50,510 nt of DNA from a bacterium (GCA_018653315.1 JABIAL010000035.1:1-50510); one strand, 5' to 3'. Numbered from the stretch's first letter, positions 17,138 through 46,307 are shown. The notes: generated by a model from the sequence alone, not told the origin. Program-made: numbers and translations.

Positions 17138-17167
17138 AAAAGCCTTTCGTGAAAACGAAAGGCTTTT
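17138..17167. terminator. Bidirectional terminator
   Basis: aaaagcctttcgt-gaaa-acgaaaggctttt. Confidence 0.88.
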
Positions 17168-17188
17168 ATGTTTATACTCTTATTCTGT

Positions 17189-18013
17189 TTACTTACAGAG
17201 CTCAAAGACAGATGGTGAGCTGATGCATTGACACTTGAATTCAGGAGCTGCATTTGCAAGGATGTGGATCAATGGATTAATGATCTTTATCAAACGATCC
17301 TGCGCTTGCTTAATTGCTTTTTTCACATCAGCACCATCAGCCGGTGGACCCTCTAAAGGCATGTTAGTCACGGTGCCAAATAAAAAATAATGCATGCTTG
17401 CTTCACGAGCTAAAACCACCTCTGGAACAGCCGTAGTCATGCCCAAAAAATTGGCATGATATTGATCACGAAGTACACGTACCTCAGCTGGCGTCTCATA
17501 ACGAGGACCTTTTACGCAAGATAAAATTCCTCTAGGACAATCAACATGATGCTCAACCAAGCTACGTAATTTGGAGCAAAGCATGTCTACAGGCGAGCGA
17601 TGAAAGGCTTCTTCATGAACAAGACCTCCTTCTCTGGCAAAAGTGTAAGGCCCACCCGACAGATCAACAAAGTCCTCTGGCATGACAATTGACCCAACTC
17701 TAAGGCCGTTAATATCGTTGGGTCCATTAATCCCTCCAACGGCCGAAGCGGCAATCACAAACTCTACGCCAGCATTATGCAAAGCATACATGTAGGCTTT
17801 GTGATTTAGTTGATGAGGTAAACGAAAAATTACAGAATCCCCTTCATGTTTTGGCTCCAAATGATGACGATCAACAAATAAGATCTCCTTGCCATCGACT
17901 GACATTTCATGAATGCTAGCTGGTCCATATGGTGTATTAACACACTTGATCTTACCACTGCCTAACAACTGACCCATTCCAGTGCCACCGATAATCGCGA
18001 TTTTTGTATACAT
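17189..18013 (-). CDS. MTAP-family purine nucleoside phosphorylase (methylthioadenosine/methylthioinosine type)
   Basis: IAIIGGTG, TPYG, RH..PH..N, SAVG, GPRYETPAE, GMT..PE..LARE, VTN. Confidence 0.88.
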   Translation of the reverse strand: MYTKIAIIGGTGMGQLLGSGKIKCVNTPYGPASIHEMSVDGKEILFVDRHHLEPKHEGDSVIFRLPHQLNHKAYMYALHNAGVEFVIAASAVGGINGPNDINGLRVGSIVMPEDFVDLSGGPYTFAREGGLVHEEAFHRSPVDMLCSKLRSLVEHHVDCPRGILSCVKGPRYETPAEVRVLRDQYHANFLGMTTAVPEVVLAREASMHYFLFGTVTNMPLEGPPADGADVKKAIKQAQDRLIKIINPLIHILANAAPEFKCQCISSPSVFELCK

Positions 18014-18033
18014 TTGTCTTTTCCTTATTTTGA

Positions 18034-18089
18034 TTGTTTAATGAACGAAATGATTATAATATTTAAGCATAACAATATAAAATGGTCAA
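18034..18089 (-). promoter_or_regulatory. Promoter region plus boxA-like motif upstream of the phosphorylase gene
   Basis: TTGACC at 18089-18084; -10 ambiguous (TTAAAT or a downstream TATAAT); GTTCATTAAACAA at 18046-18034; SD TAAGGA. Confidence 0.5.
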
Positions 18090-18092
18090 ACT

Positions 18093-18118
18093 AAAAAACC
18101 GCCTCAAGGGCGATTTTA
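18093..18118 (-). terminator. Terminator after the exonuclease-WYL gene
   Basis: Minus strand aatcgccc-ttga-ggcggtttttt (imperfect hairpin plus T tract). Confidence 0.55.
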
Positions 18119-18119
18119 A

Positions 18120-18902
18120 TTATATTAAAGTTTTTTGAAAGCTTTGCATCTTACCAGCTACTTTAACTGATTTAACCCGATCCAGATCAAACATTCGCAA
18201 AGCATCCCGTAAATGACAAAAGGCTTTAATTTTGTTACCACGTATATTCTGAATATCTATTTTACGAGAAGTGACATCCCCTTTTTCATCCATATAGCTA
18301 ATTTCTATCTGTTGCCCGTCTTTCCAAGCCTCTTGAACTTGTTGATTGATTGTTTTTTCACCAGACTTAAACCAACTAGCATTTATATCTGTTTTTACTC
18401 CACCATTATGGTACCAAATATTACCATGCTGTAAACCATAGTCATAAATCTCTTTGGTTACTTTTACATCATCTAGACAATATTTGATAAGCTTATCCCA
18501 TTCATCATTACGATAATAAACAATAGCATCTAAACCAGAGCCTGACTTACCATATCCCAAAGTGCTATGAGCCACTGAATCAAGTTTAAGACGATGTCCT
18601 AAAATTTTAGTAACTTCTTCCAAAATATCTAAATGGGGAATGCTTGCTAAATCAAAATCTTTGTAATACGGTTGTAAAACTGGAAAATCAAAAGCTTTAC
18701 TATTAAAACCAATTACCAAACCAGCCTCTTTTAAAAGATCTAACAGTTCGTCAAATTCTTCTTCTTTAAAACCTCTGTATTTATCTAAATTATAAGAATA
18801 AACACCTACTAAAGATACCCCTAGTAGATGATTGTTTTGATGCCCACCTACTTCATCAAATGTCTTCTTAGTTTCTAAGTCTAAAACTATTATATCTTTC
18901 AT
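18120..18902 (-). CDS. RNase H-like (DEDD) exonuclease domain fused to a C-terminal WYL-like domain
   Basis: VLDLET, IGFN..FD, HLDIL, LKLDSVA, YCLDDV; C-terminal IEISY.D..G..T.R.I....AFCHLRDALRMFDLDRV. Confidence 0.8.
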   Translation of the reverse strand: MKDIIVLDLETKKTFDEVGGHQNNHLLGVSLVGVYSYNLDKYRGFKEEEFDELLDLLKEAGLVIGFNSKAFDFPVLQPYYKDFDLASIPHLDILEEVTKILGHRLKLDSVAHSTLGYGKSGSGLDAIVYYRNDEWDKLIKYCLDDVKVTKEIYDYGLQHGNIWYHNGGVKTDINASWFKSGEKTINQQVQEAWKDGQQIEISYMDEKGDVTSRKIDIQNIRGNKIKAFCHLRDALRMFDLDRVKSVKVAGKMQSFQKTLI

Positions 18903-18922
18903 GACTTATATTTTAGCATACT

Positions 18923-21898
18923 CTACCAATCTTTCAACCTAAATGTTAAATCATCTAATACTCTATCATACCAATATCTGACTGGTATGGTAACAATGTT
19001 TTGCCATTGAAAACCCAAAGATAAAAACGTATCTGCGTTTGGAATCCAGTATTCTATATTATCTTTAATATAGAATATTTGAGGATACTCTCCGTGTTTC
19101 AATATTTGACCTGTTGGATGAATATCTGAGGAGCTCAAATCATCACCTAAATCATAATATTGAAAATCTTCTTGGGGAAGATGTATTATTTTATTAAAAT
19201 CATAACCAAAGTCTTTGAAGATATTACCACTCTTTATCCATCTTAATGTTTTTGAGGGTTCTATTGCATAAACTTTATTGTTGTTAGCAAATTTGACTAG
19301 CCTACCTGGCTTGACTGTCAATCTACCTTCATAAGGATAATCGTTATTTAAAATTATTGAATCCACTACTTGTAATGAAGAGAAATCATTAAACCATGAT
19401 TTAAATGTTTTAAAGTTAGGGATATAATATCTTTGATTATTTTCATTTATATAATATACTCTAGGATCATTTAGTGCTTTTATGAGAGAATTTTGTATTC
19501 TAGTTATATCTACAATACTATTAGGCGTTGATGTAGCCTGATTTTCTTCTGTTTGACAAAGATAAGAACATCCATCACCACTGACAGTATTGCCATCATC
19601 ACATTGTTCACCTGATTCTATGATCGAGTTACCACAGACTGGGCCTGTTGGTGGTGGGCTTACTGGTTCTTCTTCCTCAGTCTGACAAGTGGATGAACAT
19701 CCATCACCACTGACAGTATTGCCATCATCACATTGTTCACCTGATTCTATGATGGAGTTACCACAGATAGGATCTTCTGGTGGTGGAGGGTTTACTGGAT
19801 CATCTTCTTCTGTTTGACAAAGATAAGAACAACCATCGCCACTGAAAGTATTACCATCATCGCATTGTTCACCTGATTCTATGATCGAGTTACCACATAC
19901 TGGATCTGTAGGAAACGGGTCTCCTTCATTAACAGTGCCATACAAATATTGTATTAATCTTTTTGAGTTTGCAGCATTTTCACGAGTTACAATGGACTCC
20001 TCATCAAGATCCTTGAATTCAGAAACAGTCCACGCCCCGTCTTCGTTTTGTTCATTGATTAGCTCAGCTATTGAATCAGATCTTGGAGACATTATTTGAG
20101 TTCCTAAATTATATATTCCATCAAATATATCCTGTTCTAGATATGTGCCATGTAATAATTCATACTCATATTCGTTTCCTGTGCGATGTTCATACATCTT
20201 TATTGCGTTTGTGCCCCACCAGGAAGCTGTTCCTGCTATTGAATTTGCATCATCTGGATTTTCAACTTCTGTTCCATCTGATGCTACAAACCAAGGAGAA
20301 TTATCTTCATGGTAAAAAAGTGCCCATGTATCTTCTCCGTATTCTCCAATGTCTAATTGAAAATCTACAATCCATTCATATCCTAGCGTTGCTGGTGCGA
20401 GATAACTTTCATCACCTGTGATTTTGTATGCTTTTGTTAAAATATCAATCGCGCGATGTGTAGCTATAAGACTTTTTGCAGGAACCTCAAAAGATCTGGC
20501 TTGTACAGGCTCCAAAGTTTCAGGATCATAGTTATTAAACCATGCTTCGCTATTATATATAGAACCTTTAGTGAACTTTGCAATTCTCATTGCTGCACGA
20601 TAATATGGATATCCTAAGTTATCATCAAAAGGATCCATATTTGGATCAAAATCTCCAGTAATAGTTTCGAAAACTTTATGCGCTTTTAATAGCGCATCAA
20701 AACTATACGTCATAATGCCATGATGATACGTGATTGTGTGCCTATAATAATCATCACTACGATATTCAAGAGATAAATAAGGATATTTTACTGGTACTCC
20801 ACCATTATCATACATTGATCTTAACAAATGGTTAAGCATTTTTTCATACCCTTCTAAATATCTTTCATCTCCAGTCATATAATACAGATTCAAAAGAATT
20901 TCTCCTGCAGTAGCTGACCTCCCTTTAGCAAAAGATGGCGATGTTATTAAGAATGGATCTATGTTTGCTTCTAAATATGGGTCATTATGAGAATTTCCTG
21001 AAGTACTTAAAGGATAAAACTGAGGATAAATACTTCCATCATTTAACCAATAACCTTTTGCAAATCCTCCTCTTCCTTCAGACCACCAATCACTATTATA
21101 AATTGTTTCATCCAATAAATCATTTGGATCTAAATCACTCCCATCAGCTTGGCCTGCTAGTAATAATTCACCATAACGAATTGCAGGAATTAATATTGAT
21201 CTATCCCCTGATAACAAATATGAAAACACAAAAACATTGCTAATGTGATTTGAATCAATGATCCCGATAAATCCTGGTTGTACAATATCAATCCAAAAAA
21301 AGTTATTTCCACTTTCAAGCCCATATGCAGTTGGCCAGCCAACATGAATATCATTTGCATCTCCTGAATCTGCAAGTTCTGCCATTTTTTGCATTGATTT
21401 TTTTAGTGCTATAAGTGATGCTTGTTTTAGTTCTACATTATCTCCTGATTTTAGTATATATCCTGTTGGCTCAATTAATCTTTCAAGTACAGCAAAGAAA
21501 AAATGAGATTCAAAATAATAACTTCCTATATCAATTCGTACCTTAATTTTTTCAATTCCGCGAAATTCAGCGTCTGCGAGAGAAAAACTTAATACGCCTG
21601 AATTTTCGCTAACAGCAATGTTTTCATTTCCTGAAATGATAATTAGTGCTTCAGAAATATCATATTCTTCACTAATATATTCTGCGAGATTAAGCGTTGA
21701 AAATTGTTCGCCATAAACATAAACAAAATCTGGAAATTTTTCATGTAGTACACTGTCTGGATCAATACTTGTAAGAGCTACTCCATACATAGGACCATAG
21801 CTAAACCAAATATTAAAAATAGACAAAACAAAAATGGCGAATATACTGACAATCATTCTATTCTTAAGTCTGTCTTCAATGAAATTAAAGTGTTTCAT
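18923..21898 (-). CDS. Large surface protein: Ig-like segment, divergent PL10 pectate-lyase-like domain, three Cys-rich repeats, C-terminal CPR surface repeats
   Basis: N-terminal TM; NGGVP..YP, YYRHTITY, W...YD..TLEP..ARSFE.P and WALFY resemble PL10 motifs; CGNSIIESGEQCDDGN x3; VYYI..RY.I....F repeats. Confidence 0.7.
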   Translation of the reverse strand: MKHFNFIEDRLKNRMIVSIFAIFVLSIFNIWFSYGPMYGVALTSIDPDSVLHEKFPDFVYVYGEQFSTLNLAEYISEEYDISEALIIISGNENIAVSENSGVLSFSLADAEFRGIEKIKVRIDIGSYYFESHFFFAVLERLIEPTGYILKSGDNVELKQASLIALKKSMQKMAELADSGDANDIHVGWPTAYGLESGNNFFWIDIVQPGFIGIIDSNHISNVFVFSYLLSGDRSILIPAIRYGELLLAGQADGSDLDPNDLLDETIYNSDWWSEGRGGFAKGYWLNDGSIYPQFYPLSTSGNSHNDPYLEANIDPFLITSPSFAKGRSATAGEILLNLYYMTGDERYLEGYEKMLNHLLRSMYDNGGVPVKYPYLSLEYRSDDYYRHTITYHHGIMTYSFDALLKAHKVFETITGDFDPNMDPFDDNLGYPYYRAAMRIAKFTKGSIYNSEAWFNNYDPETLEPVQARSFEVPAKSLIATHRAIDILTKAYKITGDESYLAPATLGYEWIVDFQLDIGEYGEDTWALFYHEDNSPWFVASDGTEVENPDDANSIAGTASWWGTNAIKMYEHRTGNEYEYELLHGTYLEQDIFDGIYNLGTQIMSPRSDSIAELINEQNEDGAWTVSEFKDLDEESIVTRENAANSKRLIQYLYGTVNEGDPFPTDPVCGNSIIESGEQCDDGNTFSGDGCSYLCQTEEDDPVNPPPPEDPICGNSIIESGEQCDDGNTVSGDGCSSTCQTEEEEPVSPPPTGPVCGNSIIESGEQCDDGNTVSGDGCSYLCQTEENQATSTPNSIVDITRIQNSLIKALNDPRVYYINENNQRYYIPNFKTFKSWFNDFSSLQVVDSIILNNDYPYEGRLTVKPGRLVKFANNNKVYAIEPSKTLRWIKSGNIFKDFGYDFNKIIHLPQEDFQYYDLGDDLSSSDIHPTGQILKHGEYPQIFYIKDNIEYWIPNADTFLSLGFQWQNIVTIPVRYWYDRVLDDLTFRLKDW
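19545..19897 (-). repeat. Three near-identical repeats of about 92 nt encoding Myxococcus-type Cys-rich (DUF4215-like) units with Pro-rich linkers
   Basis: Copies at about 19545-19636, 19674-19765 and 19805-19897. Confidence 0.92.
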
Positions 21899-21932
21899 AA
21901 TTACCTGTTTATTTTACCACTTTGTCTCTATT

Positions 21933-21958
21933 AAAAAAAGAGCCCTGTTGGGCTCTTT
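21933..21958 (-). terminator. Terminator after uvrD
   Basis: aaagagccc/gggctcttt hairpin overlapping the stop codon; A run on + gives the U tract on -. Confidence 0.8.
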
Positions 21959-24020: not shown

Positions 24021-24065
24021 TGTGCTATATCAATAGTACACGTATTATAGCGTAAACTTCTGGGC

Positions 24066-24122
24066 TTGGCTAATTTTGTAAAATTAAGCTAGAATAAAAG
24101 AAAGTTCATTGAATTCTGGAGG
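24066..24122 (+). promoter_or_regulatory. Promoter, boxA-like motif and SD of orphan gene
   Basis: TTGGCT-18-TAGAAT (24066-24095); GTTCATTGAA 24104-24113; GGAGG 24118-24122. Confidence 0.55.
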
Positions 24123-24127
24123 GAAAC

Positions 24128-24355
24128 ATGAAAAATCTCACTTGGTTATTCTACTGGCGCATGCTGCCTGGAAAAAAACTACTAATAGCAACCATCTTAA
24201 TAAATATTATAACCAAGCTTTTACCAGCGGATTCCTTTGACTGGATAATATTACAGTGCTTTCTTTTCTTGCCCCTCTGTTGGCTGATGATGATTATTAC
24301 AATTATCCATATTACTTGGAAATTATACCGCCGACGCAAGATCCCTCGTCTTTGA
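24128..24355 (+). CDS. Small orphan membrane protein (2 TM, basic tail)
   Basis: Own promoter, GGAGG SD and terminator; two hydrophobic segments. Confidence 0.65.
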   Translation: MKNLTWLFYWRMLPGKKLLIATILINIITKLLPADSFDWIILQCFLFLPLCWLMMIITIIHITWKLYRRRKIPRL

Positions 24356-24371
24356 CAAGGGATCTATTTTT
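24339..24371 (+). terminator. Terminator overlapping the orphan stop codon
   Basis: agatccctcgtc-ttt-gacaagggatct followed by attttt. Confidence 0.7.
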
Positions 24372-24401
24372 ATGCTTTAATTTGATAGTATTAAATAAAT
24401 T

Positions 24402-25463
24402 ATGTCATTTTCTTTAGGAATTGTCGGCTTGCCAAATGTTGGTAAATCAACCTTATTTCAAGCTTTGACTAAAAACAAAGTAGAGGCAGCAAATTATCCA
24501 TTTTGTACTATTGATCCAAATGTTGGCATAGTTGCTGTACCGGATGCTAGATTAGATAAACTAGCTAAGCTTTCTAATTCTCAAAAAATAATCCCTACTG
24601 TCATAGAATTCGTCGATATCGCTGGTCTAGTCAAAGGCGCATCTGAAGGCGAAGGCCTAGGTAATAAATTTTTATCCCACATTAGAGAAGTCGATGCTAT
24701 CGTCCAGGTTATTCGTTATTTTAAAAATGATGATGTTATCCATGTTAATGGTAAAATAGATCCTGAAGATGACAAACAAGTGATTGATCTAGAATTAATC
24801 TTAGCCGACCTAGAAACAGTCACCAAGCACCTGACTAAAACCATAAGTAAAATGAAAGGTGCTTATGAAAAAGAATTAAACAAAGAAAAAGCAGTGGCAG
24901 AAAAAGCAAAAAAATTATTAGAAGATAATAAATTGTTAAATATTGAAACTTGGACAGACGAAGAATTCAAAATTTTGAAAATGCTAAACCTGTTAACAAT
25001 AAAACCAATTATCTATCTTTATAATATTTCAGAAGATGACTTGGGCAAAGATTTAAAACTACCTGACAATATCATTGCTATTTGCGCTAAACTAGAATCA
25101 GAAATAGCCGAATTAAGTGAACAAGAAGCAAAGGATTACCTCAAAGAATTAGGCGTAGCTAAAAGTGGGTTAGATAATCTAATTACTGCTAGTTATAAAT
25201 TATTAAATTTGATCACTTTTTTAACTACTGGGCCAGAAGAAACTAAAGCTTGGACCATTACACGTGACACTAAGGCTCCTCAGGCTGCTGGCGTTATTCA
25301 TACCGATTTTGAACAAGGTTTTATCAGAGCCGAGGTTATTAATTGGCAAATCTTATTAGATGATGGCGGCTGGAATAAAGGAAAAGATCATGGTCATATG
25401 CGCATGGAAGGAAAAGAATACCTAATGCAAGATGGAGACACTGTGCATTTTCATTTCAATTAA
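24402..25463 (+). CDS. ychF: Ribosome-binding ATPase YchF
   Basis: [44 protein letters not shown] domain with IHTDFE.GFIRAEV. Confidence 0.98.
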
Positions 25464-25490
25464 AAAATAAGCTAAAAAGCTTAATCTAAC

Positions 25491-25518
25491 TTGACAAATC
25501 ACTCAGATGTGCTATAAT
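25491..25518 (+). promoter_or_regulatory. Near-consensus sigma70 promoter with no downstream ORF
   Basis: TTGACA-16-TATAAT with TGn extension. Confidence 0.75.
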
Positions 25519-25524
25519 ACAGAT

Positions 25525-25708
25525 AGTAATGGTTCATTTAACTATTTTCTATAGCTAATAAGCACAACTAACAAGCACTACATTGTAAAAAAGTGCAAAA
25601 AATCATAATAAGTTGGCTATTAACAAAATAGAAAATAAAAGTACAATTAAAACTCCGAAACATGGAAGTTCGGACCTTGCTTAGGGCTTATGCGAGGTCC
25701 TTTTTTTA
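25525..25708 (+). ncRNA. Candidate small RNA of about 180 nt
   Basis: Bounded by promoter and terminator; tattttctat 25543-25552 pairs with atagaaaata 25628-25637; inner agctaat/gttggct and gcact/agtgc; only tiny ORFs. Confidence 0.5.
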
Positions 25709-25710
25709 TT
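25672..25710 (+). terminator. Rho-independent terminator
   Basis: ggaccttgc...gcgaggtcc followed by ttttttt. Confidence 0.8.
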
Positions 25711-25726
25711 CAATTTTTTTATAAAC

Positions 25727-26752: not shown

Positions 26753-27306
26753 AATTTAGCTTTTAAATCTCTGTTTCTTTTAGAAAATAAACAACCACAA
26801 TAATCTTGACGATAAAATCCTTCTTCTTCGCTAAGTTTACAAGCTATTTTAAAACCTTCGTTTTTCTTCCAGTCTCGATCTAGAAAATCTATTTTAAATT
26901 TATCAGCTATTCTCTGACCAATTAAACTAATCTGCTTAGCGTTTTTGTGAGGACTGATAGTCAAAACCGTAGCAAAAGCATCATAACTCTCATCTTTAGC
27001 TTTACGGGCAGTTTCTCCTAAACGAATATCAAAACAAACATCACAACGCTTTCCTTTTTCTGGTTCTTTTTCTAAACCTCTAGTTTTTTGAATCCAATTA
27101 AAAGTATCATAAGGTCCTTCGATAAATTCCAGCTTTAATTTTTCAGCATAACCCTTCATCTCATCGCGTCTCTGAATGTATTCTGCTCGAGGATGAATAT
27201 TGGGATCATAAAAATAAACAGTTACTTGCCACTCGGACATTAACTGCTGTAAAACATATATTGAACATGGTGCACAACAAGAGTGCAATAACAATTTCTT
27301 TTTCAT
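26749..27306 (-). CDS. queH: Epoxyqueuosine reductase QueH
   Basis: LLLHSCCAPCS, FYDPNIHP, RC..C...RL, SPHK, YRQDYCGC. Confidence 0.93.
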   Translation of the reverse strand: MKKKLLLHSCCAPCSIYVLQQLMSEWQVTVYFYDPNIHPRAEYIQRRDEMKGYAEKLKLEFIEGPYDTFNWIQKTRGLEKEPEKGKRCDVCFDIRLGETARKAKDESYDAFATVLTISPHKNAKQISLIGQRIADKFKIDFLDRDWKKNEGFKIACKLSEEEGFYRQDYCGCLFSKRNRDLKAKL

Positions 27307-28610
27307 AAATCAGATAAAACCTTTATTGGCGCTAGATAAATATCAGTATAAGAAGTAGGAGCATTTAAAGGTATGATTCCTCTAGCATAAGCTATCATAA
27401 GTAAACCATTTAAAACAAGCCCTGTAAATACCAGTCCAATAATAACTATTTTTATATATTTCTTTTGATTTAGGTATTTAAATAAAAATGCAAACCCTAA
27501 AATAAAGACAAATAAAGAACCGGCCATGCGTCTAGCACCAAAAGATCCACCACCATACCAATCAGATAGGCCAGAATTTATATAAGTCTGCAAACACAAA
27601 GCTAGGATTAGTAAAATAACTAGATATTTGTATTTTTTCAATGCATAAAACAATCCAATAATGGCCAAAATCAACAATGGATGAATGATAAACATGCCAT
27701 GATAACTAGAAAAAAGAAACTGCCAGATATGCGGGTGAGTAAGATCAAAAAAAGATGCTCCTTGCGGTACAGCGATCCATGCTCCATAAAGGTGCTTCCA
27801 CATCAACAGCTGTGGCAAGGCAATAAGAAAAAAGAAACTGATAAAAATACTTGCTGATAATAAATATTTATGCCAATTTTTCAATAGCCATAATTTATAA
27901 ACTACAATGCCTATTGGTATCACGCCAAATAAAACATCTTGCCAACGAACTAAAAATACTAAACCCAGAGCTAAGGCTGAAAAAGTTAAATATTTATAAT
28001 TAATCTTTGGACTTTTGTATAACTTAATTGAATAATAAAAAAGTAATGCTAGTGAAAAAACTGTTAGCCCGTGCGACATGCTTGGCTCATAGATCAAATA
28101 AAAAGGAATCGGTGATATAGCAGTAGCAATCAAAGCGCCCCACCAAACATACTTTTTATCAACTAATTTTTTTAGAGTTTTAAATATTAAGGCAATGCCA
28201 AATAAAAAATAAAACCAGGTGCCTAAGGCAATTGCTATTTGAAATGGTAAATTATATCCTGAAATGGCATAAGGATCCTCAAAGTGCCAAATAGTACTAA
28301 TAAATTTTGCCAATAAAATAAACGGACTCCATAAAATAGCAGACCCAATGGCAAAAGGATTACCAGTTTTACCAGTATCTGTCTGCCAGCCTACTGTGGT
28401 GTTATGATTATATAATTCATCAAATAAAGAAAACTCATTGTGCAAATCAAAATTGCCATCAAAGATCAAAGACCTGGCATAACTATAATAACCAAAACCA
28501 TCTCCACCAATCTGCCATGACGGTCTTAAAATAGCCACTGATATAATCAGGGCTAAAATCAAAACTATTAATAAAGTGAATATGTTATATTGTGTCTTTA
28601 TCTTAAACAT
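27303..28610 (-). CDS. Multi-TM GT-C fold glycosyltransferase-like membrane protein
   Basis: GDG..YYSYARSL..DG.FD first external loop, about 11 TMs, W.GG.SFGARR. Confidence 0.7.
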   Translation of the reverse strand: MFKIKTQYNIFTLLIVLILALIISVAILRPSWQIGGDGFGYYSYARSLIFDGNFDLHNEFSLFDELYNHNTTVGWQTDTGKTGNPFAIGSAILWSPFILLAKFISTIWHFEDPYAISGYNLPFQIAIALGTWFYFLFGIALIFKTLKKLVDKKYVWWGALIATAISPIPFYLIYEPSMSHGLTVFSLALLFYYSIKLYKSPKINYKYLTFSALALGLVFLVRWQDVLFGVIPIGIVVYKLWLLKNWHKYLLSASIFISFFFLIALPQLLMWKHLYGAWIAVPQGASFFDLTHPHIWQFLFSSYHGMFIIHPLLILAIIGLFYALKKYKYLVILLILALCLQTYINSGLSDWYGGGSFGARRMAGSLFVFILGFAFLFKYLNQKKYIKIVIIGLVFTGLVLNGLLMIAYARGIIPLNAPTSYTDIYLAPIKVLSDL

Positions 28611-28615
28611 TCATC

Positions 28616-29668: not shown

Positions 29669-29757
29669 AAAATTATAAGTATCTGTAAGAAAAGATTATC
29701 ATGAGCGAGGGCTTTTTACAAGTTTGAACTAATTCACTTGCAATACTATTTTTTAAT

Positions 29758-29795
29758 TAAAAAACCGCCAGAGGTCCGAAGACATGGCGGTTAAA
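29758..29795 (-). terminator. Terminator of orphan gene
   Basis: aaccgcca/tggcggtt inverted repeat with U tract on the minus strand. Confidence 0.75.
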
Positions 29796-29798
29796 CTT

Positions 29799-30158
29799 TT
29801 ACTCTAAAGCCCGGTCAATAGTAGACCTAAAGGCATCAAGGTACTCCTTGAGAGTAGCTGCCTCCCGATCCTTGCCAGGATGACGGAAGGGGGGATCCTT
29901 ATCCACACAATGAATATCGAATCCATAAGGGTCAATCCCAGCAAAGGGACTGACTAACACTGCATTTGGCACCCGAAGAGATGCGTTATCGCAACAGCAC
30001 GGGCAGAGCAGAACTACAACCAAGGTGCGGTTATCGTTCTTCATCTTCTCCTCGTACTCTCTTGCGATCTCTCTGACTCCGGGAAGAGCTCCAAGAAGGG
30101 CTCTACCAAGCTCCTCACAAGCATAGCGCACGCTTATTAGCGTAAATTGAACTTTCAT
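29799..30158 (-). CDS. Orphan GC-rich hypothetical protein with CPCCC motif (start revised to MKVQF)
   Basis: GGAGG SD 5 nt before ATG at 30158; line 29821-29880 counted at 32/60 GC against 18/60 in a ruvB line. Confidence 0.65.
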   Translation of the reverse strand: MKVQFTLISVRYACEELGRALLGALPGVREIAREYEEKMKNDNRTLVVVLLCPCCCDNASLRVPNAVLVSPFAGIDPYGFDIHCVDKDPPFRHPGKDREAATLKEYLDAFRSTIDRALE

Positions 30159-30202
30159 TTTTTCCTCCTGCTGTTTTAATGTTCTGAGATTGTCCCAAAA
30201 CA

Positions 30203-30258
30203 TGTTAAATGAACCTTCTTAATATATATAGTATAACATATAATAGCCGTTCTGTCAA
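30203..30258 (-). promoter_or_regulatory. Promoter plus boxA-like motif
   Basis: TTGACA-17-TATACT with TGn; GGTTCATTTAACA at 30215-30203 followed by hairpin atgttttggga/tctcagaacat. Confidence 0.75.
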
Positions 30259-30306
30259 GTATTTAACCTGAGAAACACTCTATTTTGGCTAGTATTAGAT
30301 AAAATA

Positions 30307-30340: not shown

Positions 30341-30363
30341 TGAGACTTAATATAGAAAATCTA

Positions 30364-35462: not shown

Positions 35463-35499
35463 ATTTTCTTAACTATCTTATCATCAATATATAATTTTT

Positions 35500-37308: not shown

Positions 37309-37316
37309 ACTCAAAT

Positions 37317-37342
37317 AAAACCCCTCACTTGTGAGGGGTTTT
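37317..37342 (+). terminator. Terminator after ftsH
   Basis: aaaacccctcac-tt-gtgaggggtttt. Confidence 0.85.
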
Positions 37343-37411
37343 ATAAATCATGAAAATGTTGTATAATATAAATGAATTAAAAGAAAAATAAAATAAATTT
37401 AAAATAAAAAT

Positions 37412-38389: not shown

Positions 38390-38421
38390 ACACTTTGCGT
38401 TACAAATAAAATAATATACTA

Positions 38422-38456
38422 CAAAAAGCAGGCATGAAAAATTGTCTGCTTTTTTA
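38422..38456 (+). terminator. Terminator
   Basis: aaaaagcaggca...tgtctgctttttt. Confidence 0.75.
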
Positions 38457-38491
38457 ATTGGTCTAATATACTACGATTACAAATCATCAGA

Positions 38492-38521
38492 TTGACTTTG
38501 CACTAAAACAAGGGGTATAAT
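38492..38521 (+). promoter_or_regulatory. Sigma70 promoter of pilB
   Basis: TTGACT-18-TATAAT. Confidence 0.6.
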
Positions 38522-38542
38522 ACTAATGTTAATCAAAAAAAT

Positions 38543-40279: not shown

Positions 40280-40285
40280 ACAATC

Positions 40286-40318
40286 AAAAAACTACCTCCT
40301 AAGTGGAGGTAGTTTTTT
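40286..40318. terminator. Bidirectional terminator between pilB and valS
   Basis: aaaaaactacctcc/ggaggtagtttttt. Confidence 0.9.
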
Positions 40319-40331
40319 AATACTATGAAAT

Positions 40332-42905
40332 TTATTGATTAGCTAATTTATTTTTTGCCTCGGCTAATCTTTTTTTATTATCTTTAATTACTTCTTTTGG
40401 TGCATTGCTAACAAAAGATTTATTTTTTACTTTTGCTTCCATCGATTTAATATATTTTTCTAAAACCTGTTTTTCTTTATCTGTCATAGCCTTGGTGGCA
40501 TTAATTTCACCTTGACTATGCGCTGTAGCAAATTTTGTACCATTAATAGCCTCCGCTTGTAGGGTTACTCGACCTAATTGAGCGACAACTTGTAAATCAT
40601 CCCGAGACAAAACCTGGCTAGTTAAATAACAATCAACGAAATCAGTAGGCGCAATCTTATTCTCCGCTTTAATATTTCTAATTTGAGTAACTAGATCTTG
40701 TAAATCAGCAAAATTGTCTAAAACTTTATTATCTACTTTTTTAGCTTGTGGCCAATCAGCTACCATTAGAAAACCACCTGTTTTAAATTCTTTCCAAATT
40801 ACTTCAGTCACAAATGGAGTAAATGGATGCCATAAAACTAATAATCTTTCTAAAATATAAAGTAAAATTTGATCCTTGCTACCCTGAGCATGTCGAGGGG
40901 TTTCAAGCTTTGCAATTTCTAAATACCAGTCAGCTAATTTTGCCCAAGTAAACTCATATAATTTCTCCCCTGCTGATGAAAATTTATATTTCTCTAAATC
41001 ACTAGTCACCTCTACTGCCAGTTTATTAAACTCAGCTAATATCCATTTATCAGTCAGAGTAATTGGTTTCGGCTCTGTCTTGATTTGTTTAATCTCATTC
41101 ACTTGTCCAAAAATAAAACGAGAAATATTCCAAAGTTTATTGACGAAATTACGATAACCAGCAATTTTATCTTCATACAAACGCATATCAGCTCCGGGAG
41201 CTGCGCCAATAACTAATGATAAACGCAAAGCGTCCGTACCAAATTTATCTATCATATCCAAAGGATCAATACCGTTGCCCTTTGACTTGGACATTTTCTT
41301 GCCGTCCTGATCACGAATCATGCCATGTAGATAAACAGTTTTAAATGGTCTAGAATCTTTTTCTTTGGCTAATAAATATTCTGACATCAAAATCATCCGT
41401 GCTACCCAAAAAAATAAAATATCATATCCAGTTTCCATCACCTGATTTGGGTGGAAGTTTTTAAAATCTTTTGTTTTGTCTGGCCAGCCTAAAGTAGAAA
41501 AGGTCCACAAAGAGGATGAAAACCAAGTATCTAAAGTATCCAGATCTTGAGTTATTTTTTTACCCTTAGCTAGTTTTTGTGCCTCTACCTCTGTACGAGC
41601 TACTATTACTTCATTATTTTCTGTATACCAAACCGGAATTCGATGTCCCCACCAAATCTGACGAGAAATACACCAGTCGTGTAAATTTTCCATCCAATGA
41701 TAGTAAGTTTTTTCAAATCTTTTTGGTACAATTTCTATATCGCCAGATCTGACAACTTCTAGTGACAACTCTTTCAAGGTTTTTTTACGACCTGGAAGCT
41801 TTTTGTCTACTGCCACAAACCATTGCTCAGAAGTAAGAGGTTCAATCGGAGTATCGCAACGATAACATATTGATAAGTTATTTTGATAATCCTCTATCTT
41901 TTCTATTTGCTTAGATTTCTGCAAATCTGCTACAAATTTTTCTCGGGCAACTAAAACATTTAGTCCGGCATATTTGCCACCGGATTCTAATAATTTACCA
42001 TCTTCATTGATGAGCTTGATAACTTCTAACTTATGTTTTTGAGCAAACTCAAAATCTACCACACTATGCGCTGGCGTTCCCCCAACTACACCAGAACCAA
42101 ATTCTGGATCAACTTCTTTGTCTGTAAAAACTTTTACTTTTATTTTATGTCCAGCTAAATCTATTTCTAAATCTTTTCCTACATATTTTTGATAACGCTG
42201 ATCGTCTGGATGCACAGCAACTCCTGTATCAGCTAATTTTGTCTCTGGACGAGTTGTAGCTACAGTGAATGGACCATATTTAATATAATATAACCTTGCT
42301 TGTTGCTCTTTATATTCAACTTCATCATCGGCCAAGGTAGAACCACAACGAGGACACCAATTTACAATCCGATTACCACGGTAAATCAAACCATCGTTAT
42401 ACATTTTAATAAAAGCCTCGTTTACAGCTACTGATAATTCATTAGAAAGAGTATAGGCCTCTCTGGACCAATCACAACTAGCTCCCATTTTTCTAGTTTG
42501 CTTACGAATGGTGTCTTGTGAGCCAGCTACAAACTCTTGTACTTTATCCAAAAATTTATCTCGGCCCAAAGCACGTCTATCTGTGCCTTCTTCCGCTAAT
42601 ATTTTTTCTACTTTAGTTTGCGTAGCAATAGCGGCATGATCTGTACCGGGTAACCATAAAGTTTTTTTGCCTTGTAGACGCTGATAACGAATTATTAAAT
42701 CTTCATAAGCTAAGGCTGCCGCATGACCCAAATGTAAAACACCAGTAGCATTTGGCGGTGGCATAGAAATAGTGAATTCTGGTCCAGTGCTCTTTAAATT
42801 ATCTGGATTAAATAAACCAGACTGTTCCCAGTCTTGATAAATTTGATCTTCATAATTACCAGCCTCATAAGCTTTTGGCATGTCTATTTTATTTTCTTTT
42901 TTCAT
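40332..42905 (-). CDS. valS: Valine--tRNA ligase (start revised to MKKENK)
   Basis: PPPNATGVLHLGH, GTDHAAIATQ, DWCISRQIWWGH, DTWFSS, KMSKS; the longer ORF start falls inside the T-box. Confidence 0.97.
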   Translation of the reverse strand: MKKENKIDMPKAYEAGNYEDQIYQDWEQSGLFNPDNLKSTGPEFTISMPPPNATGVLHLGHAAALAYEDLIIRYQRLQGKKTLWLPGTDHAAIATQTKVEKILAEEGTDRRALGRDKFLDKVQEFVAGSQDTIRKQTRKMGASCDWSREAYTLSNELSVAVNEAFIKMYNDGLIYRGNRIVNWCPRCGSTLADDEVEYKEQQARLYYIKYGPFTVATTRPETKLADTGVAVHPDDQRYQKYVGKDLEIDLAGHKIKVKVFTDKEVDPEFGSGVVGGTPAHSVVDFEFAQKHKLEVIKLINEDGKLLESGGKYAGLNVLVAREKFVADLQKSKQIEKIEDYQNNLSICYRCDTPIEPLTSEQWFVAVDKKLPGRKKTLKELSLEVVRSGDIEIVPKRFEKTYYHWMENLHDWCISRQIWWGHRIPVWYTENNEVIVARTEVEAQKLAKGKKITQDLDTLDTWFSSSLWTFSTLGWPDKTKDFKNFHPNQVMETGYDILFFWVARMILMSEYLLAKEKDSRPFKTVYLHGMIRDQDGKKMSKSKGNGIDPLDMIDKFGTDALRLSLVIGAAPGADMRLYEDKIAGYRNFVNKLWNISRFIFGQVNEIKQIKTEPKPITLTDKWILAEFNKLAVEVTSDLEKYKFSSAGEKLYEFTWAKLADWYLEIAKLETPRHAQGSKDQILLYILERLLVLWHPFTPFVTEVIWKEFKTGGFLMVADWPQAKKVDNKVLDNFADLQDLVTQIRNIKAENKIAPTDFVDCYLTSQVLSRDDLQVVAQLGRVTLQAEAINGTKFATAHSQGEINATKAMTDKEKQVLEKYIKSMEAKVKNKSFVSNAPKEVIKDNKKRLAEAKNKLANQ
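40882..40899. repeat. Short REP-like element in frame in valS
   Basis: ccctgagcatgtcgaggg (18 nt, within TPRHAQG), sharing CCTGAGC...CGAnGG ends with the murI element. Confidence 0.6.
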
Positions 42906-42919
42906 AAAAAAGTTTTTTA

Positions 42920-43105
42920 AAAATAAAAACGCAAAAATAATTGCGCTTAAGGGCCAAGTATAACTTGACGGTACCACCTTAATTTCTCTTAAATAAGAGA
43001 TACTTAATTTTAACGCTATAACGGGCGCACCCCGACTGAATCTACTTTCATTGATTGATTTCTTTCAGCAACTTTCCAAGTGACATTAATCTTGGATCGA
43101 ATGTT
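42920..43105 (-). ncRNA. T-box riboswitch (Val) upstream of valS
   Basis: Minus strand AATTAAGGTGGTACCG T-box with GCCCTT partner; GCCCGTTA stem IIA/B motif; CTGAA-AGAA...AGTA-GA-TTCAG stem II; short hairpin with GTC in the loop; downstream cgcaa/ttgcg plus U tract. Confidence 0.85.
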
Positions 43106-43162
43106 TTTATATTTACTTATTCATACTATAAAAGTAATCTATTTTAACAATTTAGTCAATAT

Positions 43163-43197
43163 AAAAACCACCGTTCGTTGCCTACTAGGTGGTCAAG
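43163..43197 (-). terminator. Terminator of orphan gene
   Basis: Minus strand accacc...ggtggttttt. Confidence 0.65.
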
Positions 43198-43200
43198 TGA

Positions 43201-43587
43201 TCAATCCTTGTCATCAAAACTTAGTTGCCAGTCAATATTTGGCCGAGAAAATACTCGCCGTAATTGCTGTTGAGAAACAGTGCTCATGCACCAACTAGTT
43301 GGCTGTTTTTTATCTCGACGACTAACTATAGCAGCTCCATTACCATCATATTCCAATGATAACTTACCAGTACAAGTAATACGTGGAAAATTATTACTAC
43401 CATCCAATTCTCGTGTCTGAAAACAAGAGCCACTTGCTGGACACGTAGTGTTTCGACATAGTGACTTGATCTGCTGTTTGTTCAATGAGCTTTTTGTCTT
43501 AATCGAGCTAACAACTACCTTTCGATTCGTTGGTTTTCTTGTGACTACCTTCTTCTTTACTACTTTCTTTCCCTGTCCTGCTGCCAT
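43201..43587 (-). CDS. Orphan basic protein with Cys cluster
   Basis: AGGAG SD; K-rich N-terminus; CRNTTCPASGSC...C; own promoter and terminator. Confidence 0.65.
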   Translation of the reverse strand: MAAGQGKKVVKKKVVTRKPTNRKVVVSSIKTKSSLNKQQIKSLCRNTTCPASGSCFQTRELDGSNNFPRITCTGKLSLEYDGNGAAIVSRRDKKQPTSWCMSTVSQQQLRRVFSRPNIDWQLSFDDKD

Positions 43588-43614
43588 GACTTTCTCCTGG
43601 TTGCTGTGATTAAA

Positions 43615-43684
43615 AAACTGATCCCCATGATCAGTTAAACGAACTATAATAATAGATAATACACAAAAATAACACTTTTGTCAA
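43615..43684 (-). promoter_or_regulatory. Promoter, boxA-like motif and hairpin
   Basis: TTGACA-17-TATTAT (43684-43656); GTTCGTTTAAC 43644-43634 running into the aactgatc/gatcagtt hairpin. Confidence 0.72.
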
Positions 43685-43693
43685 CCTTGTAGC

Positions 43694-44134
43694 TTAACCC
43701 ACGAGCTTACTAGAAATAACAATCTTTCTCTTATCTTGACCTAAGAACTCCATTTTAACATTAATAAGATTATTTTTTGGTAAATTATCTAATTTATCAG
43801 CCCATTCTATTACTACTAGAGTCTGCGGATCATCTAAAAAATCTTGCAAACCAATGTCTGCTAAATCTTCTGAAGCATCTAAACGATAACAATCAACATG
43901 AATTAATTGTTTAATCTGTTTATAATTAACCGGGTAGCTTTTCATCAAAACAAAAGTGGGACTAGTAATTGTTTCTGAAATCCCTAATCCTACAGCCAAA
44001 GCTTTGACGAAAACTGTCTTACCAGCCCCTAAGTTTCCAGACAAAGCAATCAATTGACCAGACTCTAAACTTGTAGCTAAATCATTGGCTACTTTATTGG
44101 TTTCTTTTATATTGTTAGTTACAAATTCTTGCAT
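43694..44134 (-). CDS. tsaE: t6A biosynthesis ATPase TsaE
   Basis: LSGNLGAGKT, SPTF, HVDCYRL, IEWA. Confidence 0.96.
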   Translation of the reverse strand: MQEFVTNNIKETNKVANDLATSLESGQLIALSGNLGAGKTVFVKALAVGLGISETITSPTFVLMKSYPVNYKQIKQLIHVDCYRLDASEDLADIGLQDFLDDPQTLVVIEWADKLDNLPKNNLINVKMEFLGQDKRKIVISSKLVG

Positions 44135-44137
44135 ATT

Positions 44138-45175
44138 TTATTTTTTAAATAACTGCCAATTAGACTGTGGTGCTACTGATAATAAATCTTTGCCGGATAT
44201 AATATTTTTTTTGTTCAAAATATTATAGTAAGCAGCGACAGAAATCATCGCTGCATTGTCTCCGCTATATTTTAGCTCAGGAAAGAAAAATGGTAAATCT
44301 TTTATTCTGGCTTCTTGTTGCAATGATTCTTTAAGTTGATTATTTGCTGCTACTCCGCCGGCTAGCATTATAGATTTTACACCAAACTCCTGAGCGGCCT
44401 TCATAGTTTTGTTTACCAAAATATCTACTACGGCATTTTGGAAGCTAGCGCAAACATTATCTACATCTTCAGTATTTATTTTTTTCTTTCTCTCTAACGT
44501 ATAAAGCACAGCGGTTTTTAATCCAGAGAAAGAAAAATTATAATCACCAGAATTAATCATTGGTCGTGGTAAATCATAAATACTACAGTCACCATCATTG
44601 GCTCGTTGACTGACAATTGGTCCACCAGGATAACCAAGGTCTAAAAGTTTTGCTACTTTATCAAAAGCTTCACCAACTGCATCATCGACTGTTGATCCTA
44701 ATAATTGATAATCTCCGTGACCTTTCATTAAAACCAATTCCGTGTGACCACCAGAAACTATCAAAACTAAAGATGGAAAATATTTATTTGCATTTTTTAC
44801 TAGCTCATCATTAGATAACCAATTTGAATAAATATGCCCTTCCATGTGATTGACTGTAACTAGTGGAGTATTTTTAGCATAAGCTAAAGTTTTTGCAGCG
44901 GTCACTCCCAATAATAAAGAAGTGATAAGTCCCGGACCAGTTGTAACTGCTAAATAATCTACTTTCTCTTCTGATTTAATATTAGCACTCAATAATGGAA
45001 TAATAGTTTCAGCGTGTTGACGAGCGGCTACTTCTGGAACCACACCGCCAAATTGCTGGTGAATATCTACTTGAGAATAAACTTGATCTTTTTCTAAAAC
45101 CAAAGAATCTGCCTGAGCATTTAAAATAGTCAAAGCAGTTTCGTCACATGATGATTCTAAAGCTAGAATTCGCAT
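44138..45175 (-). CDS. tsaD: tRNA N6-adenosine threonylcarbamoyltransferase (start revised to MRILALESS)
   Basis: LESSCDET, GGVVPEVAAR.H, GPGL, VNHMEGH, VSGGHT, DDAVGEAFDK, SFSGLKT, GGVAAN, DNAAMI. Confidence 0.97.
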   Translation of the reverse strand: MRILALESSCDETALTILNAQADSLVLEKDQVYSQVDIHQQFGGVVPEVAARQHAETIIPLLSANIKSEEKVDYLAVTTGPGLITSLLLGVTAAKTLAYAKNTPLVTVNHMEGHIYSNWLSNDELVKNANKYFPSLVLIVSGGHTELVLMKGHGDYQLLGSTVDDAVGEAFDKVAKLLDLGYPGGPIVSQRANDGDCSIYDLPRPMINSGDYNFSFSGLKTAVLYTLERKKKINTEDVDNVCASFQNAVVDILVNKTMKAAQEFGVKSIMLAGGVAANNQLKESLQQEARIKDLPFFFPELKYSGDNAAMISVAAYYNILNKKNIISGKDLLSVAPQSNWQLFKK

Positions 45176-45263
45176 AAAGATATTATAGCATAATATATAA
45201 TAAGATAATGTAATATAGAGAAAAATAGTAACTAAGTCAATGAACAGAGTAAAAAGAGTGCTA

Positions 45264-45325
45264 TTGACAAAATATACTAAATGTGCTATTATTATATATT
45301 CGCACATAAACAATAAAAAGAGGAA
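45264..45325 (+). promoter_or_regulatory. Promoter and SD of a two-gene orphan unit
   Basis: TTGACA-17-TATTAT with TGn (45264-45292); weak motif variant GCACATAAACAA; SD AGAGGA. Confidence 0.7.
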
Positions 45326-45331
45326 AAAATC

Positions 45332-45652
45332 ATGGTGACAACAATGAACAATGAATCTCAAGTGTCAGAAATTACTCGTTTCGTATTGATAGCTATTGGC
45401 CTGTTCCTCTTGGGAACTGCACCCTTACCTATACTATGCCATTTCATGCCCTACCATAACGTGACGATTGGTATAGCGGCTATCAGTATACTCGGCGCCA
45501 TAGTGGCAACCACCACTATAACGCACAACTACAACGAGCATGGTCATCGCATCATCACTGGCAAGGAGATTGATTGGAAAACACAAGTCTTTGGCTGGGG
45601 ATCAGTTCTTGGCTTAGCACTTTCTGTAATAATTTTCTGGATTATTTTGTAG
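45332..45652 (+). CDS. Orphan small membrane protein (about 3 TM)
   Basis: Three hydrophobic segments, SD present, GC higher than flanking genes. Confidence 0.65.
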   Translation: MVTTMNNESQVSEITRFVLIAIGLFLLGTAPLPILCHFMPYHNVTIGIAAISILGAIVATTTITHNYNEHGHRIITGKEIDWKTQVFGWGSVLGLALSVIIFWIIL

Positions 45653-45677
45653 ATAACACACAACAATGGAGGAAATC

Positions 45678-46250
45678 GTGAAGAACTTGAAACAACTTTT
45701 TCTGCTACTCATCACTCTGCTGATCATCAGTAACATTGCCAATGCACAATATGCCGGTATCGAAATGTACCCCAAGGGAGACATCTTCCTCTATGCTGGT
45801 AAAGATATAGTACCTGACCGCATCAAGGTGGATCTCTGGGCTACACCGAATTCCGAAATTGCCTTCTCAGTCGGTCCGAAAGTCGGCCCCTTTGCATTCG
45901 GCCTTGGTCTTAGTATGGGTGTGCCGAAAGATAAAGTCGATTTGACCTACATCAATGCTGATCTGGGATTCGGATTTGACTTGGGAGCCGTCCACTGGCA
46001 GAGCTACAACCTCTACCAAGCCGGACAAAACGTCGATGACTTCATTTTGGCCAGACAGTGGCTGAGCTACAACGACTCTCCGCTAGGCATCGTCGGACAT
46101 AACATCAAATGTGGTGCTGATGACTGGCAACTTAATTGGGGCATCTACTACGATTTTGGGGAAATCAGTCTGCTGAGCGAAAGCAAATTCGGAATCACTG
46201 CTGACCTCAACGGAGGCACTCCTTGGGCGGTTCTCGTTCTCGGACTCTAA
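45678..46250 (+). CDS. Secreted beta-strand-rich protein, outer-membrane beta-barrel-like (start revised to GTG)
   Basis: GGAGG SD before GTG 45678; signal peptide ending ANA-Q; alternating hydrophobic/Gly strands; terminal strand WAVLVLGL; line 45961-46020 counted at 32/60 GC. Confidence 0.6.
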   Translation: MKNLKQLFLLLITLLIISNIANAQYAGIEMYPKGDIFLYAGKDIVPDRIKVDLWATPNSEIAFSVGPKVGPFAFGLGLSMGVPKDKVDLTYINADLGFGFDLGAVHWQSYNLYQAGQNVDDFILARQWLSYNDSPLGIVGHNIKCGADDWQLNWGIYYDFGEISLLSESKFGITADLNGGTPWAVLVLGL

Positions 46251-46271
46251 CACCTCGCAACAATCATAATG

Positions 46272-46307
46272 GCCCGTACTCTTGAGGAAAGTACGGGTTT
46301 TTCTTTT
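46272..46307 (+). terminator. Terminator of the orphan unit
   Basis: gcccgtact/agtacgggt followed by ttttctttt. Confidence 0.8.

Follow-up and report, generated by a model that had tools for sequence, protein, structure and literature searches.

The 50,510-nucleotide (nt) stretch of bacterial DNA analysed here, called the window, is contig C16 of the assembly of genome G000 (GCA_018653315.1, JABIAL010000035.1:1-50510), which comprises 880,741 bp in 39 contigs with 34% GC and a completeness of 96.6%. Its housekeeping genes encode RNase J, TrpRS, GlyA, UvrD, YchF, QueA, RuvB, GyrA, FtsH, ValRS and TsaD/E. Between positions 17138 and 46303 lie six stand-alone units, in which a short boxA-like word follows the -10 box of the promoter. 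A preliminary description took these units for a separate gene class with an expression grammar of its own, either under Nus-type antitermination or as a regulon with a GTT-N5-AAC operator. DNA near-identical to the window is present in marine/seawater metagenome runs from several studies. Short contigs identical to the window were obtained from four runs of four studies and connect units 2, 3 and 4 with the housekeeping genes beside them; these units are therefore not assembly chimeras. The reads of four DNA runs show only the contiguity of the units with their flanks. Skip joints in the read mapping had short sides and very high depth and were taken for conserved genes of other organisms. 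The units are composed as follows, with open reading frame abbreviated to ORF, Shine-Dalgarno sequence to SD and the GC fraction at third codon positions to GC3.

Unit 1, 17138..18089, minus strand: stand-alone promoter-to-terminator unit
Promoter, minus strand: TTGACC 18089-18084, N17, degenerate box TTAAAT 18066-18061, TATAAT 18058-18053
Motif 18046-18036, minus strand: GTTCATTAAAC, N6 behind TATAAT; SD AAGGA
ORF 18013-17189, minus strand: 274 aa, PNP_UDP_1 / MTAP-like, GC 0.44, GC3 0.36
Terminator 17167-17138, minus strand

Unit 2, 24066..24372, plus strand: promoter TTGGCT-N18-TAGAAT 24066-24095
Motif 24104-24114, plus strand: GTTCATTGAAT, N8 behind the -10 box; SD GGAGGG
ORF 24128-24355, plus strand: 75 aa, hydrophobic, no Pfam match, GC3 0.45
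Terminator stem 24339-24365 with T-run, plus strand

Unit 3, 25491..25708, plus strand, between ychF and queA: promoter TTGACA-N16-TG-TATAAT 25491-25518
Motif 25532-25542, plus strand: GTTCATTTAAC, N13 behind the -10 box
Candidate structured small RNA of about 180 nt, plus strand, no ORF; terminator 25683-25701 with T7

Unit 4, 29757..30258, minus strand: promoter TTGACA-N17-TATACT 30258-30230, second box TATATT 30226-30221
Motif 30214-30204, minus strand: GTTCATTTAAC, N6 behind the second box; leader hairpin 30203-30177
SD GGAGG 30168-30164 and ORF 30158-29799, minus strand: 119 aa, no Pfam match, GC3 0.47
Terminator 29792-29757, minus strand

Unit 5, 43162..43684, minus strand: promoter TTGACA-N17-TATTAT 43684-43656, second TATTAT 43654-43649
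Motif 43644-43634, minus strand: GTTCGTTTAAC, N4 behind the second box, overlapping a leader hairpin with T6 at 43636-43610
SD AGGAG and ORF 43587-43201, minus strand: 128 aa, no Pfam match, GC3 0.29
Weak terminator 43193-43162, minus strand

Unit 6, 45264..46303, plus strand: promoter TTGACA-N17-TG-TATTAT 45264-45292, second box TATATT 45295-45300
Motif 45302-45313, plus strand: GCACATAAACAA, degenerate
ORF a 45332-45652, plus strand: 106 aa, membrane-like, GC3 0.47
ORF b 45666/45678-46250, plus strand: secreted-like, GC3 0.56
Terminator 46271-46303, plus strand

The anatomy given in the preliminary description was confirmed in its main points. The word lies 6, 8, 13, 15, 11 and 9 nt behind the -10 hexamer of units 1 to 6, as five exact copies and one degenerate copy, and at all six sites it stands on the strand of the following gene. 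A perfect TTGACA with a spacer of 16-17 bp is present at four sites, as described (units 3-6). Three sites lead straight into a stem, a long hairpin in unit 3, 11 bp in unit 4 (folding z -2.2) and 8 bp followed by T6 in unit 5. SD-led ORFs follow in units 1, 2, 4, 5 and 6, and a terminator closes every unit. Those of units 1 and 3 were found by scan and those of units 2, 4 and 6 by folding (z -2.6 to -3.2), while that of unit 5 is weak (z -0.9). Unit 1 has the geometry TTGACC-N17-TTAAAT-at-TATAAT-N6-GTTC, which equals the layout with a second box, its first box being degenerate.

The composition of the unit ORFs had been put at 53% GC from two sampled lines. The contrast with the surroundings stands, its size does not: whole-ORF values are less extreme (GC 0.37-0.49, GC3 0.29-0.56). 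The other 40 ORFs of the window have a GC3 of 0.20-0.30 and no SD ahead of the start, as had been noted for the housekeeping genes. The 16S rRNA of the genome ends in GGATCACCTCCTT and carries a canonical anti-SD. Only the unit 1 product, a PNP/MTAP-like phosphorylase, matches a Pfam family; 5/6 unit ORFs have no match. The unit 4 ORF was not found in 39 of the 40 relatives searched, with one weak hit (expectation value E 0.007), and its protein gave only leads below 0.9 in the ESM Atlas. For ORF b of unit 6, a set of 5.8 billion proteins includes just five relatives (41-99% identity). This ORF likely starts at GTG 45678 behind GGAGG, since a start at ATG 45666 would place this SD inside the gene, and the alignment to its ortholog in genome G001, of the same genus, begins at residue 8. 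A distant GC-rich donor of ORF b is not supported, in that no distant homologs were found. Directly upstream of unit 1, an ORF on the minus strand (18120-18902) has a C-terminal WYL domain in addition to an RNase_H-like/PolB-exonuclease-like domain.

The RNA of unit 3 folds with a z of -2.85 into a long hairpin and a single-stranded stretch containing ACUCC. Pairing of this stretch with the SD sequences of the gene class would be conceivable as a speculation. A comparison with Rfam gave no family at gathering score and chance-level hits only at E up to 10.

Counting alone gives the word little weight in the window. GTTCRTTNAA occurs there in five exact copies, at 18046 (minus), 24104 (plus), 25532 (plus), 30214 (minus) and 43644 (minus). 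Shuffled windows hold 1.69 copies on average and reach at least five in 4/100 cases, which makes the number by itself only marginal. It is the position behind the -10 box, not the count, that marks the sites as non-random. Genome-wide, GTTCRTT was observed eight times within 25 nt after 218 intergenic promoter-like sites, against 0.89 expected. The genome has 24 exact copies of GTTCRTTNAA; judged from their contexts, six lie behind a promoter (the five of the window and C26:65517), and the remaining 18 are mostly situated within coding sequence. Five of the six promoter-proximal copies fall into 5.7% of the genome (binomial p 3.5e-6, a post hoc value because the window was chosen for the motif). 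The word is enriched, positioned at promoters and rare before housekeeping genes, in agreement with the preliminary description. A zero-or-one-occurrence expectation-maximization motif search (ZOOPS-EM) missed it, drifted to tRNA 5' ends and to A-rich or SD-like words, and was dropped.

The promoters in front of the word belong to a conserved type, here called class A: TTGACAAAAT-N-TGCTATwAT, often with a second TATATT box behind it. An alignment of 22 sites reads cTTGACAAAAT-N-AATATATGCTATwAT, and in most of them the second TATATT follows 2-3 nt later. A nhmmer profile of 18 promoters detected 39 sites at E<1, 22 of them with E<1e-3. The order was represented by a set of 41 genomes, G000 among them; G001 is congeneric with G000, and G006 comes from another genus. 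A sequence-only covariance model of 22 promoters found matches in 41/41 of these genomes, with 4-42 per genome. The second box is present at 21/49 class-A sites of G000, at 26/33 sites in other loci and at 4/30 in G006. Class-A promoters also precede the genes for S20, S16, L21, UvrA, deformylase and a DEAD-box helicase. Because of these ribosomal protein and other core genes, and of the matches in all 41 genomes, class A is, on its sequence, the strong, optimal general promoter of the lineage's housekeeping sigma factor and not private to orphans. The genome has three Sigma70_r2 genes; by their length, the 461-aa ORF is taken for the primary sigma factor and two ORFs of about 190 aa for small alternative ones.

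Downstream of class-A promoters, GTTC is enriched about ten-fold throughout the order and in a strand-specific manner. Among the 4-mers 8-19 nt behind the -10 box of 49 class-A-like sites in G000, it shows the strongest enrichment (13 occurrences versus 2 in the longer control interval from +24 to +55), and the words that come next, CGTT, AGTT and GTTA, overlap it. In the 41 genomes, 4-mers were counted 10-16 nt after TTGACA-N14-TRYTANNNT. GTTC was found 99 times in 36 genomes (91 without G000), versus 10 for CTTG and 9 for TCTG of the same composition. Its reverse complement GAAC occurred 35 times, against 21 for the control CAAG, and the difference between 99 and 35 makes the element strand-specific. 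At 35 sites outside G000, conservation is seen only in GTTC, in position 6, which is mostly T (0.74), and weakly in position 7, where pyrimidines are preferred (T 0.43, C 0.31); the "TAAC" half is at background. GTT[CA] stands 3-7 nt behind the second box at 10/21 sites of G000 and 9/26 sites of other genomes. Outside the window, the 11-mer with up to two mismatches was found 28 times versus 12 expected, 13 of the 28 sites at a distance of 12-15 nt. The alignments support well a conserved core of 6-7 nt, GTTCnTy, rather than 11. A position matrix over 215 intergenic promoter-like sites showed no signal downstream of the -10 box, so the element is confined to a subset of promoters.

Comparison with G001 adds evidence from divergence. 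This genome is syntenic with the window and 77-89% identical in DNA over the housekeeping genes. Unit 1 is at the same place with identical motif and leader, and shows the same promoter geometry. In unit 2, GTTCATT is retained ahead of an ORF of 36% identity; in unit 3, it is retained in a conserved RNA with compensatory changes in two stems. In place of unit 4 there is an SD-led ORF of 100 aa that is unrelated and runs in the opposite direction. Promoter, motif (GTTCATTCAAAC) and T-run of unit 5 are kept and the changed hairpin bases still pair, yet the ORFs have become unalignable. The counterpart of unit 6 is found on the opposite side of the CYTH gene, carries GTTCATTAAAAAA in place of the degenerate word, and has ORFs of 63% (a) and 39% (b) identity. 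GTTCATT is thus kept in 5/5 retained units amid diverging spacers, leaders and ORFs, and the core is therefore under constraint. Empty sites in sister genomes had been suggested as a check; G001 shows replacement (unit 4), relocation (unit 6) and extreme divergence (unit 5). Between queH and ruvB, a 435-aa ORF without Pfam match (27303-28610, minus strand) is absent in G001, where its flanks abut (C7:12110/12105), a whole-gene insertion or deletion between close relatives.

With the core reduced to GTTCnTy, the Nus-type interpretation can be weighed. According to this, NusB-S10 would be recruited by the motif, acting as boxA RNA, and would render the transcription of orphan genes terminator-resistant. 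The window copies do resemble the boxA consensus quoted in the preliminary description, NusB is encoded, and in unit 5 the motif is followed by hairpin and T-run in a nut-like layout that is conserved in G001. Only GTTCnTy is conserved order-wide, however. The proposed comparison with the genome's own rrn leader showed no motif in the transcribed part (C11, about 925-1240, minus strand); the only GTTCnT nearby lies upstream of the -35 box. What 16 of 22 16S leaders of the order (L185-L206) have in common is instead CTGTTTTTTCTT(GA), an invariant block that immediately follows a conserved hairpin (GACAGAAGTGTCT...GGACATTGCTGT). The copy in G000 is located as follows.

C11:1118-1129, minus strand, in locus L001 (G000:C11:1-2417): rrn block CTGTTTTTTCTT

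This block has exactly two copies in G000, one of them in the rrn leader, and occurs at none of the six units; it is probably the lineage's real, boxA-like antitermination element of the rrn operon. Gram-positive rrn boxA variants are nearer to the motif than that of E. coli, a lead against which the leaders of this lineage speak. The units hold one or two ORFs or the RNA of unit 3 and end at their own terminators, unlike the long multi-gene transcripts served by antitermination. The check for nusB and rho came out divided: NusB is present, but no Rho_RNA_bind domain was found in the 96.6%-complete genome. A single NusG is encoded, and no second NusG or RfaH/LoaP-like paralog was found. Nus-type antitermination at the units is on these grounds very improbable.

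The second proposal, taken as a repressor operator just downstream of the start that shuts very strong cassette promoters as a regulon, fares somewhat better and is still unlikely. Roadblock repressors typically occupy such a place just behind the start site, the element is found preferentially at one gene class, and the long form clusters in the window, with the post hoc reservation made above. The half-sites of some helix-turn-helix repressors may resemble the core. The specific GTT-N5-AAC operator fails, since its AAC arm is at background, the 6-7 conserved nucleotides are without dyad or repeat symmetry, and the reverse complement shows hardly any enrichment (GAAC 35 vs CAAG 21, compared with 99 vs 9-10 for GTTC). 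The spacing to the -10 box is variable as well. A search with PF01381 for Xre-type regulators retrieved one ParB-like ORF only, other regulator families not having been searched. A non-symmetric operator is possible.

The claim of a separate gene class has been substantiated: its members combine the consensus promoter, an SD, their own terminator, a higher GC3 and orphan status. ORFs were called with a longest-ORF caller, which returned 935 in G000 at a minimum length of 50 aa and 900 at a minimum of 60 aa. A strong SD precedes 35/93 ORFs with GC3>=0.35, compared with 27/760 with GC3<0.30 (p 1e-20), and many of the SD-led, high-GC3 ORFs lie behind a nearly identical promoter. The link between SD and GC3 repeats in G006 (800 kb; 29/106 high-GC3 ORFs versus 19/645). 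About 92% of the genes of G000 lack an SD. When the 34 ORFs of at least 60 aa with a class-A promoter up to 160 nt upstream are set against the remaining 866, an SD is present in 17/34 versus 52/866, a GC3>=0.35 in 19/34 versus 74/866, and a tblastn hit in G006 in 13/34 versus 658/866. The association of SD, GC3 and orphan status, which had been singled out for testing, is thus strong genome-wide. Within the class-A ORFs, orphans account for 11/13 with GTT[CA] and 10/21 without it (p 0.034). No Pfam match (E<=1e-3) was obtained for 33/40 ORFs behind class-A promoters outside the window; the matched exceptions include a receiver domain, a phosphoribosyl-pyrophosphate-synthetase-like protein and an IS110-type transposase. 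As the cause of the high GC3, selection on the codons of strongly expressed genes is unlikely, because S20 and L21 have a GC3 of 0.19 behind the same promoter.

Several loci outside the window belong to the wider picture of these genes. At least six consecutive cassette-type ORFs, mostly small and membrane-like and several with their own class-A promoter, form an islet-like region at C26:16861-24291. Three tandem small SD-led ORFs at C20:1471-2698 (minus strand) each stand behind a repeated element, …CTTCCTCTTTTCCAAGAYTATAAA…TTTTAGAAAAG, that is not a class-A promoter. A transposase gene of the IS110/IS116 type (insertion sequence families) at C30:6992-8302 (minus strand) is SD-led with a GC3 of 0.37 and lies some 180 nt behind a class-A promoter that carries GTTCATC. 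Similar leader sequences stand behind two further promoters of the same contig (near 4388 and 6371). Long IS110 leaders can encode a guide ("bridge") RNA.

Recurrent leaders raise the question of whether the word has any function of its own, or is carried along as promoter-leader modules are passed on through descent, gene conversion or the exchange of cassettes. The extended SD context CAGCAGGAG has 12 copies in the genome, five of them directly before the starts of cassette ORFs at the following positions.

Window 30173, minus strand (unit 4)
C11:11903
C11:3582
C20:2120
C28:60418

Its recurrence hints at shared or exchanged leader modules, as may the leader at C11:11908-11998, which is paralogous to that of unit 4 while the two ORFs are unrelated. 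The turnover of cassettes between G000 and G001 points the same way. On the other side, the window copies share only promoter hexamers and motif, GTTCATT is kept in G001 where adjacent bases diverge, and an enrichment of about ten-fold over 34 genera would be hard to reach by spread alone. Passive transport of the word is accordingly rather doubtful, a little more so than an operator.

The promoter sequences support well an interpretation in which the "boxA-like" word is the downstream module of an order-conserved, strong housekeeping-sigma promoter. This promoter consists of -35 TTGACA(AAAT), a 17-bp spacer ending in TG(C), -10 TATwAT, often TATATT 2-3 nt further on, and GTTCnTy after another 3-7 nt. 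GTTCnTy stands on the RNA-like strand at about +1 to +15 from the predicted start, preferentially at single-gene cassettes for small, fast-evolving, GC-richer, SD-led orphan proteins. As a whole, a promoter module that would act in cis, either early in transcription or at the RNA's 5' end, and is not a NusB-S10 site, is the best explanation, with a probability of roughly 0.5.

Mechanistically, the duplicated -10-like box and the G/C-containing GTTC in a stretch of only A and T may constitute a sigma-dependent promoter-proximal pause or an escape module. In the pR' promoters of lambda and phage 82, a second copy of the -10 box in the part transcribed first binds sigma again, and the pause is set by a G/C-containing element further downstream, with A/T-rich DNA behind it (PMC5001585). 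At the class-A promoters, GTTC is the first word containing G or C after an almost pure A/T stretch, and the usual gap of 5-6 nt places its C at a distance of 15-16 nt from the beginning of the second box. Promoters with one box, such as that of unit 1 and a tRNA promoter with GTTATTT 6 nt after the -10 box, have the G at the expected start site, and GTTC could there provide start-site context instead. In either form, the action would be in cis and strand-specific, on early transcription or the 5' end of the RNA.

Several observations weigh against this explanation. In lambda the repeat is situated entirely downstream of the start, whereas the second box here overlaps the expected start; in units 1-3 no clean second box is present. 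Start sites are predicted, and the ORF counts depend on crude longest-ORF gene calls. A distance from the -10 box of 6-15 nt, and of 26-28 nt in two relatives, is loose for a contact with RNA polymerase. The 11-mer with up to one mismatch is not enriched outside the window (2 observed, 1.0 expected). Enrichment in G006 is weak, with three GTTC in the test window and three in the control, and second boxes are few in that genome. Over all intergenic DNA of G000 and G006, the distances between GTTC and its closest -10-like hexamer showed a flat distribution without any peak, as chance hexamers swamp the signal.

Part of this evidence favours a function in the RNA, the close rival to a pause. GUUCnU near the 5' end would then bind a protein, or set the stability or translation of SD-led messages. 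The element is strand-specific and always within the predicted transcript, often 7-21 nt ahead of the SD in short leaders, and the two relatives with 26-28 nt to the -10 box have it near the SD. A hairpin often follows directly, and the small RNA of unit 3, which has no ORF, is headed by the element too. Such a leader element leaves the tight link to one promoter type unexplained, though, stands anywhere from 18 to more than 55 nt ahead of the start codon, and has no known candidate binding partner. An enhancer that pairs with 16S rRNA was rejected, as the complementarity to pieces of 16S rRNA amounts to at most 7 nt. A leader element is the least improbable of the alternatives to the promoter module, at odds well short of even.

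Little is known of gene control in ultra-small uncultured bacteria, and a limited look at the literature (Patescibacteria, Shine-Dalgarno, promoters) yielded nothing on the topic in the material covered. The present analysis provides a promoter architecture conserved in 41/41 genomes and a strand-specific downstream element enriched about ten-fold. It divides the genome into an SD-less core and a minority of strongly promoted, SD-led, GC-richer orphans with fast turnover, which are obvious candidates for a role at the surface or in interaction with a host. The tempting annotation as boxA is removed, and a likely real element of the rrn leader is pointed out. Class-A promoters may be used as parts for genetic tools in such organisms. 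A bolder proposal would make the combination of duplicated -10 promoter and GTTCnTy checkpoint, a pause or a loading site for a factor, a dedicated order-wide expression channel for the fast-evolving cassettes, the factor co-regulating surface or host-interaction genes apart from the SD-less genome, with the unit 3 RNA in the same circuit; this is an unlikely extension.

Among known systems, rrn and lambda boxA share with the element a short U-rich word in the 5' leader on the RNA-like strand, and unit 5 adds the following hairpin. The differences are its position at predicted +1 to +15 of single-gene units, not inside long operons, and its absence from the rrn leaders of the lineage. The lambdoid pR' pause offers the same strand-specific, promoter-linked arrangement of a near -10 copy just downstream and a G/C-containing element in A/T-rich DNA. 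Here, the repeat starts 8-9 bp after the first -10 box, overlapping the expected start, no Q-like factor or Q-binding element is known, units 1-3 are without a clean repeat, and a pause is a prediction.

Extended -10 promoters of housekeeping sigma factors are closely matched by TTGACA, the 17-bp spacer, TGn and a TATAAT-like -10 box: units 3-6 score 11-12 of 12, and the columns of the alignment are invariant or nearly so. Class A adds AAAT after the -35 box, ATATGC before the -10 box, the second TATATT and GTTCnTy, all kept order-wide. With phage morons and ORFan cassettes, the units have in common their own promoter and terminator, a deviant GC content, a location between conserved genes and a variable presence among close relatives, in which they are present, absent, replaced or moved. 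No prophage or mobile-element context was recognized at the units, whose neighbours are uvrD, ychF, queA, ruvB, gyrA, valS, tsaE and tsaD, no PHROGs search having been made. In contrast to morons, the cassettes are chromosomal and dispersed, and use the host lineage's own consensus promoter, which they share with ribosomal protein genes. The element is real, conserved, strand-specific and promoter-proximal, the gene class is real as well, and together they represent a variant of consensus promoter architecture and of moron-like cassettes.

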